A DNA stretch of 15,864 nucleotides from a virus: UHGV virus genome UHGV-0248791. One strand, written 5' to 3'. The position numbers were made by a program, and so were the translations under genes. The notes under the pieces were generated by a model. It was not told where the DNA came from and did not search any database. It saw only the letters and a list, made by a program, of their open reading frames with translations. Positions 3,702 to 10,536 of the stretch are shown piece after piece. The stretch's first letter is position 1; the number at the start of each line of letters is the position of its first letter.

Positions 3702-3959
3702 TCACGCAGTAAACTCCTTCACCAGCGTTTCAAACTGGCTTACCTGTCCTTCCAGTTCCGCCACGCAATCCACCAGCTCATCCACCGCCTTTTGTGTGCG
3801 GTGTTTTGCCTGCAGCAGATCACGAAGCGCCGGAGTAAGCTGCTTGCGGAGCGTATCTTTTTTCACGCTCGTTTTTTCCATCTGTTCAGCACAACGAAGC
3901 ATCTCCTGCGCCTGCCGACGAAGTTGTTCCGGTGAAACAGTGATTGTTCTGTTGTTCAA
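3702..3959 (-). CDS. Hypothetical small protein (85 aa, predicted coiled coil)
   Basis: ORF joined to the DnaB-like gene stop (TTGA overlap at 3956-3959); TTG start with GGAG 9 nt upstream. Internal ATG starts have poor Shine-Dalgarno sequences. Confidence 0.45.
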   Translation of the reverse strand: MNNRTITVSPEQLRRQAQEMLRCAEQMEKTSVKKDTLRKQLTPALRDLLQAKHRTQKAVDELVDCVAELEGQVSQFETLVKEFTA

Positions 3960-5356
3960 AATAAACGCTCCGTTTTACTGCCCGACATGCGGTTATTGCT
4001 GTATCTGCGCGGATTGCCCGGCGTCATGGGTGTGGAAAGAACCCGGGCACTCTCCTGGTCCACAGGCAGAAAATGTCCGTTATGAAAACGCCGGTAAATG
4101 GTCCCGAGTGTGCCATTACGCTGTTTCGTGATGTTGATTTCTGCTATGCCTCTGGCCTGTGTATCCGGGTTATACACCTCATCCCTGTAAAGCATCAGAA
4201 TGATGTCGGCATCAGCCTCTATTTCCCCGGAGTTTTTCAGGTCTGAGTTCATGGGACGTTTATTGGGTCTGGATTCCACGCCTCGGGAGAGCTGGCTCAG
4301 AGCAATCAGCGGGAAACCGCCGGATTTTGCCAGGCTTTTAAGTCCCTTTGAGATTTCCCCCACAGCAAGGTCGTGACGCCCCGTGCTGCGGGTTTTAATC
4401 AGACCGAGGTAATCGACCACCACCAGCGCCGTTTCCGGGTGTTTCATCCGGTGGTGCTTCGTGGTTGCACATATCTCATCAATGGTCAGGTTTGCCTGAT
4501 CCACCATCCAGATATTACGCCCCGTCATTCGTCCCACGCCCTGCGAGAAACGCGCCCAGTCTTCATCTTCAAAACGGGCAACAGACTTAAGACGGGATAC
4601 CGGCATTCCACCGGCAGCAGACACCATACGTTCACCAATCTGGATGTTCGCCATCTCCATGGTGAACAGAAGCACGCCATGCCCCTGCTCAGTCACCTTG
4701 TCGATGATGTCCAGCGCAAGTTCGGTTTTCCCCATCGAAGGACGGGCGGCAATGAATACCAGGTCACCGGGCTCCATACCGCCCGTTTTTGCGTCCAGTT
4801 CATCAATACCGGTCATCAGCGCCCTGGATTTCTCCAGTCCCTGATTGCGGCATTCAACACGGTCGACCACTTCCGGAAGGACATCATCAATGTGAACCGG
4901 CTGAATGACGCCCTTTCCGGTCGACAGTGAGGCCATCATGTTCTGCACATCCTTCAGGGCATCCTCGGCTGCTTCACAGGTATACGCATCACGTAAATTC
5001 TGTAATGCTTCAGTCAGTGTTTTTTCTGCATCGCGCAGTGCGGCATTGCGCCGCAACGCTGCGACATAGTGCTCCAGTGAAGACTTCACCCAGGTTTTGC
5101 GTCCGGTGTCGGTAATCACCGGGGCAAGTTCCGGCATCTCATTGCACAGCAGTACGGGGTCAATGACGCCGGATATGCGAGCCTGTCTGCAAATCCCCGC
5201 GTAAATATCCCGGTACTGACGCACAAAAAATACATCCGCCGGAAGTGTGGCCAGAATATCCATCACTTCCGGATCGGCCCCACGCAGAAAAAACGCACCG
5301 ATGACAGCGCCTTCCAGGTCATCGTTACGCCATGCCGGGGTGTTCTGGCTGGTCAT
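3956..5356 (-). CDS. Replicative DNA helicase, DnaB family (phage-encoded)
   Basis: 466 aa with Walker A GxxxxGKT (IAARPSMGKTELALD) and DnaB C-terminal motifs (SQLSRGVESRPNKRPMNSDLKNSGEIEADADIILMLYRDEVY). ATG 5356 with GGAGG Shine-Dalgarno; ATGA overlap with the upstream gene. Confidence 0.9.
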   Translation of the reverse strand: MTSQNTPAWRNDDLEGAVIGAFFLRGADPEVMDILATLPADVFFVRQYRDIYAGICRQARISGVIDPVLLCNEMPELAPVITDTGRKTWVKSSLEHYVAALRRNAALRDAEKTLTEALQNLRDAYTCEAAEDALKDVQNMMASLSTGKGVIQPVHIDDVLPEVVDRVECRNQGLEKSRALMTGIDELDAKTGGMEPGDLVFIAARPSMGKTELALDIIDKVTEQGHGVLLFTMEMANIQIGERMVSAAGGMPVSRLKSVARFEDEDWARFSQGVGRMTGRNIWMVDQANLTIDEICATTKHHRMKHPETALVVVDYLGLIKTRSTGRHDLAVGEISKGLKSLAKSGGFPLIALSQLSRGVESRPNKRPMNSDLKNSGEIEADADIILMLYRDEVYNPDTQARGIAEINITKQRNGTLGTIYRRFHNGHFLPVDQESARVLSTPMTPGNPRRYSNNRMSGSKTERLF

Positions 5357-6252
5357 GCGGCAACACCTCCGATACGAGAACGGTAGCTGGGCCAGTTAAA
5401 CGACAACCAGTTGCGCCCGCCATCGGTGATCCTGTCGGCAATCCGGGGACTGATGAACGCCCACAATTCTTCCGGTGAAAGGTTGCTGATCAGGATAGTT
5501 GGCAAAATACCCTCATACCGGGCATTGATAATTTCCTGCAAAATGGCCATTTCAGCCGCACTGCCAAACTGAACGCCGACTTCGTCGACAATCAGCAAAT
5601 CCAGTGACGCATAATGCTCAATGACGTCATCCGCTGTTTTTTCACTGTCATTCCGCCAGCAGTTTTTCACAGCCCGGGTAAGGCGCATCACGTCGGTGAT
5701 CTCCACACTGGCCAGATAGTTACGGATGATGTGTTTTGCCATTGATACCGCCAGATGATTTTTCCCGGTACCGCAACTGCCGGTCATAACAAGACTGGTA
5801 CCGTTCTCCAGCATATCTGGCCAGTTCTCCGCATAGCGGCGACAGGCCGCAAGATTTCTGGCTGCGTCAGGATTAACCTCCAGATAATTATCAAACTCGC
5901 AGTCCCGAAAACGCAGAGCAATTCCGGCGTTATCAGTCAGTTCTTCCGCCTTGAGGGACGACAGTTCCATGGTCAAATCACTGGCCTCAGCGATCAAGCA
6001 GTCAGGGCAGCATGAAATTTTTTCTCTGTCCTCGCCATTACGATCGATCCACACCAGTATATGCGTACGATATTTACCGTGTTTTTCGCAATATCCGCGA
6101 CCTTCACGCATCAGGCAGGAACGATAAGGCCATGGCTTTTCGCCCTTCTGAGCAAATGCAATCTCTGCCCGTAACTCATCCATTTCTGCCCGTAACTCAT
6201 CCATTCGCGCCTGTAGTCTTGTTTGTTTCTCACGTTGGTCAATCGTCATCAT
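5353..6252 (-). CDS. DnaC/IstB-like AAA+ helicase loader with N-terminal Cys/His cluster
   Basis: Walker A GSCGTGKNHLAVSMA and Walker B LLIVDEVG. Start taken at ATG 6252 (GAGGTG 7 nt upstream) rather than the track's GTG at 6261. The N-terminus has a duplicated heptapeptide MDELRAE. Confidence 0.85.
   Translation of the reverse strand: MMTIDQREKQTRLQARMDELRAEMDELRAEIAFAQKGEKPWPYRSCLMREGRGYCEKHGKYRTHILVWIDRNGEDREKISCCPDCLIAEASDLTMELSSLKAEELTDNAGIALRFRDCEFDNYLEVNPDAARNLAACRRYAENWPDMLENGTSLVMTGSCGTGKNHLAVSMAKHIIRNYLASVEITDVMRLTRAVKNCWRNDSEKTADDVIEHYASLDLLIVDEVGVQFGSAAEMAILQEIINARYEGILPTILISNLSPEELWAFISPRIADRITDGGRNWLSFNWPSYRSRIGGVAA
6164..6205. repeat. Perfect 21-bp tandem duplication (2 copies) inside the DnaC-like gene
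   Basis: tctgcccgtaactcatccatt at 6164-6184 and again at 6185-6205; in frame, encoding MDELRAE twice. Confidence 0.9.
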
Positions 6253-6262
6253 CGCTGTCACC

Positions 6263-7255
6263 TCAGAATGTCAATTTGTTACTGGATTTACCGAATTTGT
6301 CAGACATGGCTCCCAGGCCAGCCAGGACATCGACCTGTCGCTGTCGCCCACCTCCGTGAGCGGCTGGCTGTTGCCAGTAATCTTCGAAGTGACGATCGGG
6401 TCCAAAGAACGTCGCAGCCTGCTTCACGAACTGTGTGCCGGTATTTCCTGTAGCACGTACCCAGGCGGCATACCGCTTCACGCCATCAAGCATGGTCTCC
6501 GGTTTTATTCCCTCCCTGATACGGGCTTTCCAGGCTTTGAAGGCTGCTGACTTGGAATTGCCACCAGCACGTTTGGGATATTCCTGCCAGGCCTGTTCAA
6601 ATTCCGGTGAATATTCCTGTCGGGCAGAACGCGCTGGCGCAGACGCGTCAGCGGATGCATCAATAGTGTTTTTAGTCTCCGTTGTAATCTCTGTAGTAAT
6701 CTCTGTATTTGTATCAACATTCGGCGTATCCCCTGTTCCGTTATGACGTCGGGGGGTGTTCCGTTTTAACGTAATAGCTGTATCGCTGATTGCATTATTG
6801 CTGTTACTTTCTGGCGAAACAGAAGAAGGTGTGGTGATGGCCGCAATTGCCTGTGGGTTGATCCCGACAAACAAAATATTGCTGCATTTCACCCCATCGA
6901 GCATTTCCACCGTGCGTAAATCCAGAGTAATAAACCCTGCATCGCGCAGACGCTTCAGCGCATCTGCGGTTTCCCTTTTCCCGAAACCAAACTGCTCAGC
7001 AAACGCCTGGTAGCTTCTTTGCAGTTTGTCGCCCTGAAAACGCTTGCGATATCCCAGCAACGCTCCGGTGTGCTCATCCCTGACCTCTGTCGGGCGGTAC
7101 CAGTAAACGATCTCTGAAAGCAGAGCGATAGCCGTCGCATCCGGACGCCCACTGGGTAGTCGAATATATTTCCACCAGTTCGCAGGTGTAACATTGCCGG
7201 AAATATTAATTTGACCAATAGCCATAACTTCCGGTGTGGGGGCGTAACGGCTCAT
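6263..7255 (-). CDS. Replication initiator / replisome organiser (lambda O-like role)
   Basis: 330 aa, directly upstream of the DnaC- and DnaB-like genes with ATGA overlap to the preceding ORF. Low-complexity central linker (TEITTEITTE, DASADASA) between N- and C-terminal domains; AAGGAGG Shine-Dalgarno before ATG 7255. Confidence 0.65.
   Translation of the reverse strand: MSRYAPTPEVMAIGQINISGNVTPANWWKYIRLPSGRPDATAIALLSEIVYWYRPTEVRDEHTGALLGYRKRFQGDKLQRSYQAFAEQFGFGKRETADALKRLRDAGFITLDLRTVEMLDGVKCSNILFVGINPQAIAAITTPSSVSPESNSNNAISDTAITLKRNTPRRHNGTGDTPNVDTNTEITTEITTETKNTIDASADASAPARSARQEYSPEFEQAWQEYPKRAGGNSKSAAFKAWKARIREGIKPETMLDGVKRYAAWVRATGNTGTQFVKQAATFFGPDRHFEDYWQQPAAHGGGRQRQVDVLAGLGAMSDKFGKSSNKLTF
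6675..6707. repeat. Iteron-like 12-bp direct repeats within the O-like gene (candidate replication origin)
   Basis: GTAATCTCTGTA at 6684-6695 and 6696-6707, preceded by the degenerate copy TCTCCGTTGTA (6676-6686). Lambda ori iterons also lie inside the O gene linker. Confidence 0.4.
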
Positions 7256-7551
7256 ACAACCTCCTTCCGCGGCATGAGAATTGTGTAGCCACGCGCAGGT
7301 TGTAGTCTGGCTTTTGCATCAATAGTAAGCGTTGCAATTTTTCGGATATGAAGATAACCAGCTCTTTCCAGTGCCAGGGTTTCCCTGAATATCGCTTGCT
7401 TAGAACAACAGCAGAAATCAGCAAGCACCTGATGATCAATAACTCTCTCGCCTTCACCGTCTGAAGAACCCGACATCAAAACACGCAACATAATCAGGCG
7501 CTGAATCGGGTTATCGAAAGCACATCCGCACACAAACTGAAAACAGTTCAC
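7252..7551 (-). CDS. Hypothetical protein (99 aa), possible helix-turn-helix DNA-binding protein
   Basis: GTG start overlapping the upstream stop (GTGA) with GGAGG 6 nt upstream; ATGA overlap with the O-like start. Possible HTH segment SKQAIFRETLALERAGYL. Confidence 0.5.
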   Translation of the reverse strand: MNCFQFVCGCAFDNPIQRLIMLRVLMSGSSDGEGERVIDHQVLADFCCCSKQAIFRETLALERAGYLHIRKIATLTIDAKARLQPARGYTILMPRKEVV

Positions 7552-7772: not shown

Positions 7773-7963
7773 GGACGCACCTCCGCCGTAGTTACGTATT
7801 TAACCGGGCTACCTTTCATTGAGATGGTTTCACACATCTCTGCCGCTTTCAGTTCCGCTGTTTTTCTGGATTTATAGCGACGGTGCCAGACAGATACATC
7901 CGTGCGAACTGATACATCGTTTCTGTATTCCGTAGTGGAGATGATGATTTCGTAACTAATCAT
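7769..7963 (-). CDS. Hypothetical protein (64 aa)
   Basis: ATG 7963 with GGAGG Shine-Dalgarno 7 nt upstream; ATGA overlap with the stop of the Rha-family gene. Confidence 0.5.
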   Translation of the reverse strand: MISYEIIISTTEYRNDVSVRTDVSVWHRRYKSRKTAELKAAEMCETISMKGSPVKYVTTAEVRP

Positions 7964-8820
7964 GGGCGAACCTCCTTGTCAGAACCATTCAGCCTGGAAT
8001 CAACAAGTGCAGCGCCAAAAACAGCATCACCAACACGGTCGTACAGTTTGCTAGCCAGCGGAGATTCAACGGCCTTAAGCATTGGATAAAGCTGGCTTGT
8101 CCAGATTTGATGGATTTCACGCAAATGCAGGTATACGCCTCTGGCGTTTCGTGCGACAGCTGACATATCAGACGCATCGGCACCTGATAAACTCTTCTCC
8201 ATCAGGTTAAAGGCGTTGATGTATGCCTCTTTGAACCGGGCAGCACGTTTACCAGTGAAGCCCATGGCAAGAAACGCAAAACCGTCGCGGGTGATTTGGT
8301 AACAAGGGAGCTTGCGTGTACCACCGTTCGGTTGATTTACCGAAATCGATGTCTCCGCAAAATTGCGGGCACAAAACTCAGGGGAACAATCCAGAGTGCG
8401 GATCTTTTTCAGCACATCGTCATGACGCTTGGAGAAGAAGTTGGCAACAGCCAAAGAAGTGGTAACGGCCTGGCCGTTGTCAATGGTGATTTCAGGTTGA
8501 GTGAGGGCTGGGATCGTAGCCATGATGGCAGCCTCCGTTGACAGTGAAAAACTTCCACCACCGGAAACGCCAATTTCACTGGTGGTGAACTGGACGGGGT
8601 TGGCGTAACCGGCGTCAACGGAGACCGGCGCACCTTTCGGTGCCCCCGCCCAGCCCACCATAATCTGGATGTGAGCAAATGCGGACGATAAAAAAGACGC
8701 TGGCGCGTCATACATCGCCGTTGACAATTTCAGGACGCCAATCCCGGCACCCGCTTTATAAGGTGCGGAGACAGTGTAACGTCCCGGAATTGCAGAATCA
8801 ATATGCTGGTGGCGGATCAT
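7960..8820 (-). CDS. Rha-family phage regulatory protein (paralog A); alternative internal start at 8523 would give a 187-aa product
   Basis: Rha-like motifs AVTTSLAVANFFSKRHDDVLKKIRTL...ITRDGFAFLAMGFTGKRAARFKEAYINAFNLME. Two nested starts: ATG 8820 (GGGAGG Shine-Dalgarno, ATGA coupling to the upstream gene) and ATG 8523 (GGAGG Shine-Dalgarno), the latter sitting right at the start of the Rha domain. Confidence 0.6.
   Translation of the reverse strand: MIRHQHIDSAIPGRYTVSAPYKAGAGIGVLKLSTAMYDAPASFLSSAFAHIQIMVGWAGAPKGAPVSVDAGYANPVQFTTSEIGVSGGGSFSLSTEAAIMATIPALTQPEITIDNGQAVTTSLAVANFFSKRHDDVLKKIRTLDCSPEFCARNFAETSISVNQPNGGTRKLPCYQITRDGFAFLAMGFTGKRAARFKEAYINAFNLMEKSLSGADASDMSAVARNARGVYLHLREIHQIWTSQLYPMLKAVESPLASKLYDRVGDAVFGAALVDSRLNGSDKEVRP
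8524..8820 (-). promoter_or_regulatory. Conserved structured leader, copy A (candidate cis-regulatory RNA; may also be translated as an N-terminal extension)
   Basis: Transcript sense: site 1 GTCAACGG (8725..8718), terminator-like GACGC-GCCA-GCGTC plus U6 (8709..8690), hairpin GCACC-GAAA-GGTGC (8643..8630), site 2 CUCCGUUGAC (8623..8614), pseudoknot-type helices ACGCCAA/TTGGCGT interleaved with CACCACC/GGTGGTG (8606..8556), site 3 GUCAACGGAG overlapping the Shine-Dalgarno (8542..8533). Confidence 0.4.
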
Positions 8821-9479
8821 AGGTGCACCTCCCGTTGATTACGACGGAACGCGGAGTGACCCTGGACGGTTTCAGCCTCATGGAATGCTTCAATACAGCT
8901 CTCGTAGTACCGCATTGTGCGCAGACTTAACCCAAGCTGAAGCATCATCAGACCATCAAGGGTGATGTAATAACCACGCAGGGAGTCACCGTAGATGTGA
9001 TAAGTACCCGGTATGAAATTGCGGGTAAAAAACCCGCGTGAGCAGTTCAGATACTCGATTTTGTCAACGATGTTCTGGTGCATGCGCTTGAAATGGCAGG
9101 CAACATGCAGGGAGAAAATAACGGCCTTGCCGTTGACGACTTCGATTTTTAGGAATGGGGAAGTTAGGACAGTAGCCATGATGGCAGCCTCCGTATGCAA
9201 TGGATAACTTCCACCACCGGAGCTGCGAAACTCATGGGTGGTGAACTGAACAGGGTTCGCAGTACCGGCGCATACGGAAACCGGCGAGCCTTTCGGCTCC
9301 CCTGCCCAGCCCACCATAATTCTGGCGTGCGTGAGCGCGGACGATAAAAAAGACGCTGGCGCGTCATATATCGCCGTATGCAATTCCGGGCTGCGACCCC
9401 CGGCACCCGCTTTATAAGGTGCGGAGACAGTGTAACGTCCCGAAATTGCAGAATCAATATTTGGTCTTGAAATGATCAT
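8817..9479 (-). CDS. Rha-family phage regulatory protein (diverged paralog B); alternative internal start at 9179 would give a 120-aa product
   Basis: Degenerate Rha-like region AVIFSLHVACHFKRMHQNIVDKI...ITLDGLMML. ATG 9479 lacks a clear Shine-Dalgarno, whereas internal ATG 9179 has GGAGG 8 nt upstream within a 20-nt block identical to copy A. Confidence 0.5.
   Translation of the reverse strand: MIISRPNIDSAISGRYTVSAPYKAGAGGRSPELHTAIYDAPASFLSSALTHARIMVGWAGEPKGSPVSVCAGTANPVQFTTHEFRSSGGGSYPLHTEAAIMATVLTSPFLKIEVVNGKAVIFSLHVACHFKRMHQNIVDKIEYLNCSRGFFTRNFIPGTYHIYGDSLRGYYITLDGLMMLQLGLSLRTMRYYESCIEAFHEAETVQGHSAFRRNQREVHL
9180..9479 (-). promoter_or_regulatory. Conserved structured leader, copy B (same architecture as copy A with compensatory changes)
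   Basis: Site 1 GCATACGG (9381..9374), identical GACGC-GCCA-GCGTC plus U6, hairpin GAGCC-GAAA-GGCTC (9299..9286), site 2 UUCCGUAUGC (9279..9270), helices CTGCGAA/TTCGCAG interleaved with CACCACC/GGTGGTG, site 3 GCAUACGGAG overlapping the Shine-Dalgarno (9198..9189). Confidence 0.4.
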
Positions 9480-10295: not shown

Positions 10296-10519
10296 TGTTG
10301 GTCTCCTGTGGGCTTGTCATCTTCTGTATTCGCTAGACTTGGGTGTGTATATGGAATGCTCGGATCCAGATGACAAAGAATGGCAACATCCTCCGGAACA
10401 CCTCGCGTTTTCCACTTTCCAACACCTTGACTGCCACGAGGCCTTCCTTTCTTTGGGAACCTGCGACCAATAGCGGCATTGGTTTTAAATTGAATTTTTA
10501 ATATTTCATAAAGGGTCAT
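10292..10519 (-). CDS. Questionable small ORF (75 aa) in the Cro position; no HTH recognisable, may instead be an untranslated leader
   Basis: ATG 10519 is only 17 nt from the operator cluster and has a weak Shine-Dalgarno. The product is basic and low-complexity (GRRFPKKGRPRGSQG). The stop overlaps the downstream ATG (ATGA). Confidence 0.3.
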   Translation of the reverse strand: MTLYEILKIQFKTNAAIGRRFPKKGRPRGSQGVGKWKTRGVPEDVAILCHLDPSIPYTHPSLANTEDDKPTGDQQ

Positions 10520-10536
10520 TCTTTAGTCTCACGCCA

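Follow-up and report, generated by a model that had tools for sequence, protein, structure and literature searches.

The stretch analysed here is the viral genome UHGV-0248791, 15,864 nucleotides in length and referred to below as the window. It carries on its minus strand the gene of an O-like replication initiator of 330 amino acids, and the linker between the two domains of this initiator is encoded by repetitive DNA of two kinds, namely a tandem array of a 12-bp word and, upstream of it, three 16-bp units that are dyad-symmetric in relatives. We propose that the 12-mers and the dyads together form a two-part cis-acting replication origin within the linker of the initiator gene, a reading to which we assign a probability of roughly 60%. 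The features concerned are listed below.

6263-7255, minus strand: O-like replication initiator gene, 330 amino acids, an open reading frame (ORF) of PHROG 270, with the array inside its inter-domain linker.
6827-7255, minus strand: N-terminal domain (N-domain), amino acids 1-143, an extended winged helix in the AlphaFold2 model, presumed to bind DNA.
6263-6643, minus strand: C-terminal domain (C-domain), amino acids ~205-330, exchangeable and presumed to contact the helicase loader.
6759-6774, minus strand: dyad unit 1, TTACGTTAAAACGGAA, a direct repeat with arms complementary at 6/7 positions, candidate initiator site; coordinates checked.
6736-6751, minus strand: dyad unit 2, CGACGTCATAACGGAA, a direct repeat in another frame, 12/16 identical to unit 1 and 23 bp downstream of it.
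6714-6729, minus strand: dyad unit 3, ATACGCCGAATGTTGA, degenerate, with its centre 9.5 nt before the ACAAAT-ACAGAG anchor.
6671-6712, minus strand: 12-mer array, ACAAAT followed by ACAGAGATTACT, ACAGAGATTACA, and ACGGAGACTAAA, the word conserved family-wide; checked against the sequence.
6712-6707, minus strand: half unit ACAAAT, preceding the 12-mer units.
6706-6695, minus (coding) strand: array unit in frame, ACAGAGATTACT.
6694-6683, minus (coding) strand: array unit in frame, ACAGAGATTACA.
6682-6671, minus (coding) strand: degenerate array unit, 9/12, ACGGAGACTAAA.
6771-6782, minus strand: outlying 10/12 copy of the word, TACAGCTATTAC, directly upstream and overlapping the start of dyad unit 1.

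The repeats were first noticed in a reading of the letters of the window, which had described two perfect copies and one degenerate copy of a 12-bp unit in the linker of the O-like gene, encoding TEITTEITTE. This description was confirmed. On the plus strand, GTAATCTCTGTA occurs as two perfect head-to-tail copies at 6684-6695 and 6696-6707, and Tandem Repeats Finder reported a tandem repeat at 6676-6707 (period 12, 2.7 copies, score 50). The translation of the array, NVDTNTEITTEITTETKNTID (also given as TNTEITTEITTETKN), includes TEITTEITTE, and the repeats lie between two conserved halves of the 330-amino-acid ORF. When the pattern TACAGAGAYTAC was searched with up to two mismatches, seven occurrences were found in the window against 1.18 expected, a number reached by none of 200 shuffles. 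The segment 6708-6719 was also considered as a further degenerate copy and was rejected because it matches at only ~5/12 positions.

Subsequently, the conservation of the array was examined in a species scan, in which one genome per species was searched with an N-domain alignment. This gave 80 loci with N-domain identities of 36-69%, from Enterobacterales, Acinetobacter, Bacillus, Clostridia, Lachnospiraceae, Chloroflexota, Atribacterota, Competibacteraceae, and others. About 50 of the 80 encode T[NY]TE[IN]TTE[IN]T... at ~160-230 residues into the protein, and the DNA of the array in those loci reads ACA-wAT-ACA-GAG-AwT-ACT-ACA-GAG-AwT-AC. The word (T)ACAGAGAwTAC is conserved across phyla at the DNA level, including the synonymous sites. 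Indeed, in 50 distinct loci from several phyla, the third-codon positions of ACA-wAT-ACA-GAG-AwT-ACT-ACA-GAG carried 1.0-2.0 bits of information. Codon usage within the block differed sharply from that in the rest of the same genes: the ratio of GAG to GAA for Glu was 106:5 in the block versus 358:784 elsewhere, and that of AAT to AAC for Asn was 95:1 versus 623:272. The Thr codon ACC was used in none of 271 cases within the block versus 195 of 861 outside it, and ATT accounted for 57 of 65 Ile codons versus 419 of 1056. Furthermore, the 10-mer ACA[GA]AGA[ATC]TA was found 124 times on the coding strand at +400 to +800 nt, in 60 of the 80 loci, versus just three times elsewhere on the coding strand and once on the other strand. 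A few units of the word sit in other reading frames. The codon bias, the positional specificity, and the units in other frames show that the word is selected as nucleic acid and that the peptide is secondary. Competibacter arrays appeared to be intergenic, with the ORF ending before the array; these were set aside as homopolymer frameshifts in nanopore assemblies and are uninformative.

The word was also found beyond the N-domain family of the window. The exact 24-nt dimer of the word was present in at least 120 IMG/VR contigs, and all 80 of the matches examined lay 140-220 codons into ORFs of ~270-390 amino acids. The N-terminal parts of these 80 loci fell into three clusters with no BLASTP link between them, designated type a (17 loci), type b (14 loci), and type e (49 loci); the array is common to initiator families that have no BLASTP similarity to one another. 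Type e proteins, with the motif QICYWLED..., have iterons of their own (GGGCAAATTGCACTCATCGA) and include those of Staphylococcus aureus, Bacillus, Lactobacillus, Klebsiella, and Erwinia phages; phage 96 retains one unit of the word. Among the matches listed, the three N-terminal clusters combine with at least five C-terminal clusters. The type a module, to which the window belongs, was also observed on phage-plasmids of Bacillus cereus/thuringiensis and on a 16-kb Vagococcus plasmid. This plasmid carries dyads (TGACATTAAAATGTCA), 12-mers, a C-domain like that of the window, and a DnaA/Hda-like loader, and no other replication gene is evident in the gene neighbourhood. The arrangement of the array recurs in hundreds of elements.

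We next describe the dyad units upstream of the array. In the window, the three 16-bp units are spaced by 23 and 22 bp. Because of the 23-bp spacing, units 1 and 2 are read in different frames, and the word they have in common is translated as TLKRNT in the former and as RHNGT in the latter. In the relatives, each lineage has 2-6 dyad units upstream of the array with a period of ~22-23 bp, and their arms converge on an A-rich centre. The sequences of the arms differ by lineage, as follows.

Enterobacterales (Serratia, Yersinia, Xenorhabdus), the counterpart of unit 1 of the window: TTACGTTgaAACGTAA.
Bacillus cereus group: CCTTACTTgaAAGTAAGG.
Coprococcus: TACAAAATTTTGTA.
Syntrophomonas: TCATGTAATcaATTACATGA.
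Chloroflexota, metagenome-assembled genome: TGGCGCnnGCGCCA.
Other lineages: CTCCCGaaaaaaCGGGAG.

The centre of the last dyad lies at a constant 9.5 nt ahead of the ACAwAT anchor across the family, and the array starts ~1.5 helical turns after the last dyad; the phase between dyad and array is fixed. In 46 distinct sequences, the arms of the last dyad were paired in 74.6% of cells versus 49.3% after shuffling, and they covary: the covariation score was 0.611 versus 0.196, no shuffle out of 500 equalled it, and slid controls gave 0.10-0.24. The dyads, like the 12-mers, are under selection as DNA. Weaker dyad peaks were observed at -32 and -54.5, giving a period of 22-22.5 bp. Furthermore, the putative recognition helix of the N-domain (residues 93-106) varies between lineages in step with the dyad half-sites. 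The fixed spacing between the dyads and the array suggests that the array is structurally tied to a bound protein, and judging from these sequence patterns the units at 6714-6774 are more likely than the 12-mers to be the lambda-style iterons. As a separate observation, the outermost pair of the last dyad (columns 7/20) is T-G in 10 of the 46 sequences, for example TACGTT..AACGTG; such a pair does not match in a DNA palindrome, whereas in a single strand folded back on itself it would be a wobble pair.

The stability of the DNA was also compared. The segment 6660-6719 is a local minimum of G+C content (GC), at 31.7%, and no 40-mer or 60-mer of the replication cluster 3956-7255 is less stable than 6682-6721 and 6662-6721, respectively. 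The original prediction had seen no adjacent AT-rich unwinding element; this does not hold, the 12-mer array itself being the candidate for that element by its GC of 31.7% and its lowest stability. Within the window, regions less stable than the array occur elsewhere, at 400-970, 2030-2440, and 10486-10525. Across the relatives, the GC of the block stays at 0.29-0.36 while that of the gene ranges over 0.24-0.63, and in high-GC genes a median of 2% of the 36-nt windows are less stable than the block. Pure AT-richness was rejected as the cause of the conservation since the GC of the block is kept whatever the GC of the gene. As AT-richness is insufficient to account for the conservation, a sequence-specific reader of the word is implied.

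Closer relatives were then compared, a check that had been put forward together with the original prediction. Among the distinct E. coli and IMG/VR loci sharing the N-domain, perfect units numbered one (1 locus), two (46 loci), three (8 loci), four (1 locus), or five (1 locus). The range of one to five copies indicates that the array expands and contracts by steps of 12 bp. In E. coli relatives that were 5-9% diverged, both domains had 3-15 substitutions per 60 nt, spread throughout, versus just 0-3 per 60 nt in the linker (gene nt 361-660), and the sole change within the dyad array fell between repeat units. This low divergence of the linker points to constraint at the DNA level.

The same genes also showed exchange of modules around the linker. 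In E. coli prophages, one C-domain is joined to four types of N-domain (a-d), of which type a is that of the window. Type b, found in Stx1/Stx2 phages (L001), has TENT/TEIT/SENT 12-mers at the same place, after its own GGGAAAnCC-type repeats. No BLASTP match was obtained between the type a and type b N-domains, and hhalign gave a weak colinear match (E=0.0013, probability 18%). The DNA homology between the genes of the window and the Stx1 phage stops inside the array, at query position 444, which corresponds to window position 6706. Types c and d, the latter being that of phiP27, are without the word and have other sets of repeats; the linker repeats of the other N-domain types were taken from L001 (3440-3600), L254, L036, and L068. 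Homologous O-like genes lacking the repeats had been named beforehand as an observation that would speak against an origin here. Such genes exist in types c and d; since they have other N-domains and repeats of their own, they do not refute it. The type c linker carries TTCACCAGGTGGTGCA and three copies of GAACCAGTCAAw, that of type d carries GACCCkTCAGAwTCTG and two copies of AAAACATGATCCGCAAG, and the copy number of the SEPSK unit varies.

Two further groups of loci were noted. L165, L166, and L167, which are on E. coli chromosomes, share with the window the N-domain, the repeats, and the greater part of the C-domain, and end in another C-terminal tail. In these three the initiator is followed by a gene for a PerC-family regulator or a methyltransferase, and the DnaC-like and DnaB-like genes are missing downstream; the absence of the pair suggests variants that use the loader and helicase of the host. 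In the metagenome-assembled genomes L168 (gene nt ~630-640), L213, and L230, the initiator ORF is apparently truncated at homopolymer runs (A7, G7, and C7), and these truncations are probably assembly errors rather than split genes.

The initiator itself was assigned to PHROG 270, 'replication initiation protein', with E=4.6e-78. It matched no family of Pfam (at E<=0.01) or NCBIfam; the only Pfam similarity was a weak one to HTH_36 (E=0.019). The AlphaFold2 model of the N-domain had a mean predicted local distance difference test (pLDDT) value of 91. In a Foldseek search of the PDB with this model, the winged helices of TFIIE-alpha/TFE were the best matches and the N-terminal domain of DnaD (2v79) was also recovered, all weakly (E ~4e-3 to 1.4e-2); the DnaD domain ranked fourth, with E=1.4e-2 and a template modelling (TM) score of ~0.4-0.48. 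No RepA structure was among the top 50. By sequence, residues 79-112 gave weak matches to GntR/AsnC helix-turn-helix domains, and a PDB sequence search with the initiator gave weak generic helix-turn-helix matches only. A search for homologous proteins with the N-domain returned mostly fragments of less than 250 amino acids, and few distant relatives were gained. As for the C-domain, its PHROG matches include 'DnaD-like helicase loader', and the protein of the Vagococcus plasmid pBN31-16k has a homologous C-domain. The O-like gene was found in 480 of 5426 complete E. coli genomes, in the chromosome in every case. In RefSeq/PGAP annotation, copies of the protein are named 'LvrA C-terminal domain-related protein', 'replication protein', or 'hypothetical protein', with no match to an NCBIfam hidden Markov model here.

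The genes next to the initiator are consistent in kind with a replication module, and the two that enter the proposed mechanism are as follows.

5353-6261, minus strand: DnaC-like helicase loader gene (Pfam IstB_IS21/Bac_DnaA, NCBIfam DnaC, PHROG 50).
3956-5356, minus strand: DnaB-like replicative helicase gene (Pfam DnaB_C, E=9.8e-74, and a DnaB N-terminal domain).

Several other features of the neighbourhood were recorded. A perfect 21-bp tandem duplication, two copies of TCTGCCCGTAACTCATCCATT at 6164-6205 (Tandem Repeats Finder score 84), forms an in-frame repeat of seven amino acids within the N-terminal part of the DnaC-like loader. At 7252-7551 (minus strand), a 99-amino-acid ORF ends in a stop codon overlapping the O-like start; positions 1-93 of PHROG 4617, 'replication initiation protein', align with it (E=2e-29), and no Pfam family does. 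The ORF may encode a second, small replication factor. Upstream of the O-like gene lie a CI-like repressor gene and genes of the Rha/Ash type. Two tandem Ash/Rha-type genes (7960-8820 and 8817-9479) contain two pairs of RNA elements on the minus strand, each with one C4 antisense RNA (8578-8665 and 9234-9321; 83 and 81 bits) and one isrK (8690-8766 and 9346-9422; 62 and 59 bits). Judging from these matches, the region looks like a duplicated P1/P7-style antisense-controlled antirepressor module. Two tRNA genes are located at the left end of the window on the minus strand (10-83 and 94-162; Rfam tRNA, 56 and 58 bits).

We interpret the repeats in the linker as two functional parts of one origin. 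The first part would be the three units at 6774-6714, 22-23 bp apart, acting as lineage-specific sites of the initiator's own winged-helix N-domain; these units would be the true counterparts of the lambda iterons and of the 'Rep boxes' of RepA_N plasmids. The second part would be the array at 6712-6671, which follows the last dyad at a fixed distance, in the position of the AT-rich region of lambda, and which may be an element that many initiator families share and that is recognised by its sequence. It would most likely serve for duplex opening and the entry of the helicase or primosome, and it may be contacted as single strands or by a conserved host factor. In this scheme the initiator complex assembled on the dyads would open the adjacent 12-mer array or hand it over, after which the C-domain would recruit the phage DnaC-like/DnaB-like pair, and the TEITTEIT peptide would be a by-product. 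Initiator binding, unwinding, and origin activity are thus what we infer from the sequence comparison. The original prediction had taken the repeats for a candidate origin; this part is supported, in that they are a DNA-level cis element in surroundings whose anatomy fits an intragenic origin, and the equation of the 12-mers with the iterons of lambda is not supported.

Four observations weigh against the two-part origin. Firstly, the dyad units of the window are degenerate, unit 1 being good and unit 3 weak, so that their assignment as iterons rests largely on the relatives. Secondly, in low-GC hosts a median of 13% of the gene windows, and up to 84%, are less stable than the block; because the array is not unusually unstable in these hosts, a purely thermodynamic role in unwinding fails to explain the conservation. 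Thirdly, the loci compared are not phylogenetically independent. Fourthly, part of the similarity among the E. coli linkers could stem from recent recombination.

Other explanations were weighed against the same evidence. The original prediction had likened the 12-mers to the iterons of lambda, and the alternative that survives best holds that they are indeed iterons, with each double-stranded 12-bp unit bound by the winged helix or by a part of the fold common to the three N types; the dyads would then have a different task, for example in autoregulation or in bending the DNA. This explanation would be in keeping with the presence of tandem direct repeats within an initiator gene and their conservation along with the N-domain family, with the hydrophobic-x-YW motif present in all three N types (EIVYWYRP, QIFYWQDK, and QICYWLED), and with the weak colinear alignment of types a and b by hhalign (E=0.0013, probability 18%). 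However, iterons normally diverge along with their initiator. Here, the identical word follows three N-domain clusters that are unrelated by BLASTP and hardly changes between E. coli, Bacillus, and Chloroflexota, whereas the putative recognition helix does change; the word is therefore probably not the specificity-determining site of the initiator. By strict criteria for iterons, the 12-mers are multiple direct repeats but do not covary with the DNA-binding domain. Moreover, their 12-bp head-to-tail spacing is off helical phase, their number varies from one to five among near-identical prophages, and it is the adjoining dyads that have the design of lambda and RepA_N iterons (PMC7145576). We consider it unlikely that the 12-mers are iterons.

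According to a second alternative, the array is a DNA-level element unrelated to an origin, either a junction for recombination between N and C modules or an RNA or translational signal. The homology break between the window and the Stx1 phage inside the array (6706) and the many combinations of N and C modules are in line with a junction. Against this, second-order selection for shuffling is unlikely to keep 11/12 positions across phyla, the fixed spacing from the array to the last dyad speaks for a structural tie to a bound protein, and types c and d swap the same C-domain without the word. An RNA element was rejected, as no Rfam family covers the array and the dyad arrays of two relatives gave sub-threshold, hairpin-like microRNA matches only; a promoter was rejected likewise, as the block contains no sigma-70-like site. 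This alternative appears quite unlikely.

According to a third alternative, the prophage has its origin at another site, such as an intergenic region rich in AT, and the intragenic repeats are relics. The less stable regions of the window mentioned above (400-970, 2030-2440, and 10486-10525) and the degenerate dyad units of the window would agree with it. But these regions are all outside the replication module and are without the conserved words of the family, the linker DNA is strongly conserved in the E. coli relatives, and the arrangement recurs in hundreds of elements, and so we regard an origin elsewhere as distinctly improbable. That the array is no more than a slippage-prone, low-complexity Thr/Glu linker, a protein spacer and variable number tandem repeat with no function as DNA, would suit its in-frame changes by 12-bp steps (one to five copies) and its inter-domain location, but is hardly credible given synonymous sites conserved across phyla against the codon preference of each host, word units in other frames, and a neighbouring 16-mer repeated in two frames.

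A broader proposal can also be made, which we advance tentatively and with somewhat less than even confidence. The word (T)ACAGAGAwTAC may act throughout bacteria as a sequence-specific 'origin core', with at least three families of winged-helix initiators without detectable sequence similarity placing their own, lineage-specific iterons at a set distance from it. Its carriers would be phages, phage-plasmids, and plasmids of Proteobacteria, Firmicutes, Chloroflexota, Atribacterota, and others. The core might be read by a conserved component of host replication or by a single-strand surface of the initiator during opening, helicase loading, or priming. If true, it would be a portable, universal origin module for mobile elements, with a reach like that of the DnaA box or the DnaA-trio. 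Were a conserved host factor to read the word, or were it read as single strands, it would reveal how mobile elements of many kinds arrive at one common point of entry to the replisome. It would also provide a sequence signature for finding origins in thousands of unannotated prophages and plasmids, and would explain why domains are swapped at exactly this point of these genes. The proposal predicts which ~110 bp of this E. coli prophage family should act as an origin and as a phage-resistance decoy. In the literature, which we covered in part, no published description of the element was found under the DNA word, the peptide, the origins of replisome organisers, or the replication of non-lambdoid Stx phages, and origins were not analysed in the paper on Eru phages (PMC8044961).

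Finally, the locus was compared with known systems. The annotation of lambda agreed with the earlier statement that its iterons lie inside O: four copies of ATCCCTCAAAACGAGGGA with a period of 20-24 bp are followed by a block of 32% GC, all within the gene. As in lambda, the repeats of the window (6671-6774) lie between the parts encoding the N-domain (amino acids 1-143) and the C-domain (amino acids ~205-330). Direct repeats of ~16-19 bp with internal dyads, arms converging on an A-tract, and a period of 20-24 bp are seen in the relatives, and of the three units of the window only unit 1 is a good dyad. An AT-rich block on the C-terminal side of the candidate iterons and the exchange of modules at this boundary are shared with lambda. 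Unlike in lambda, the initiator is not Phage_rep_O (no Pfam match), the AT-rich block is a tandem array of a cross-phylum word, and where lambda has P and the DnaB of the host, the phage here has a DnaC-like loader and a DnaB-like helicase. The AT-rich block of lambda was also examined as a possible degenerate array and this was rejected, with two matches at up to three mismatches versus 1.09 expected.

A second comparison is with the RepA_N plasmids. In pSK41, the N-terminal domain binds Rep boxes that lie centrally in rep (PMC5703833). The protein does not need the central linker that the origin encodes, and the C-terminal domain is host-specific (PMC5703833). Chimeric initiators have arisen by swaps of the N-domain, as in pPR9 (PMC5703833, PMC7145576), and in the semi-palindromic iterons the two arms run towards a poly-A centre (PMC7145576, PMC5703833). 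Neither PMC5703833 nor PMC7145576 mentions a conserved 12-mer array beside the Rep boxes. The window resembles this group (pSK41 Rep, PLE RepA) in the modelled winged-helix N-domain, the origin-encoded linker, and the exchangeable C-domain. Semi-palindromic, A-tract-centred repeats in the centre of the rep gene are also shared, family-wide and in unit 1 of the window. It differs in that the initiator has no match to PF06970 and its match to the fold of the DnaD N-terminal domain is weak (E ~1e-2).

Intragenic origins occur as well in the DnaD-like 'replisome organiser' genes of Gram-positive phages such as r1t and Tuc2009. The rep gene of TP901-1, annotated 'replication protein, experimental', is similar to that of the window in having repeats within the linker followed by an Asn/Thr-rich, AT-rich stretch; it differs in its N-domain, in its own repeats (TTTTCCAGATGTGG, two copies), and in the absence of the exact word.

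The array itself can be compared with unwinding elements. The 13-mers of E. coli oriC and of RK2 oriV are repeats of such elements and are contacted as single strands by DnaA or Rep; known repeats of this kind are replicon-specific. As in these origins, the array consists of short tandem repeats directly beside the candidate initiator sites, is the least stable DNA of its module in the window, and is sequence-specific rather than merely AT-rich. Unlike them, it is located within coding sequence, its word is retained from phylum to phylum and from one initiator family to another, and it shows no particular instability in low-GC hosts. In the known intragenic origins, those of lambda and the RepA_N plasmids, all elements are regarded as replicon-specific; what would be new here is an origin of which one half is constant across phyla and across initiator families without detectable sequence similarity and the other half changes with the initiator.

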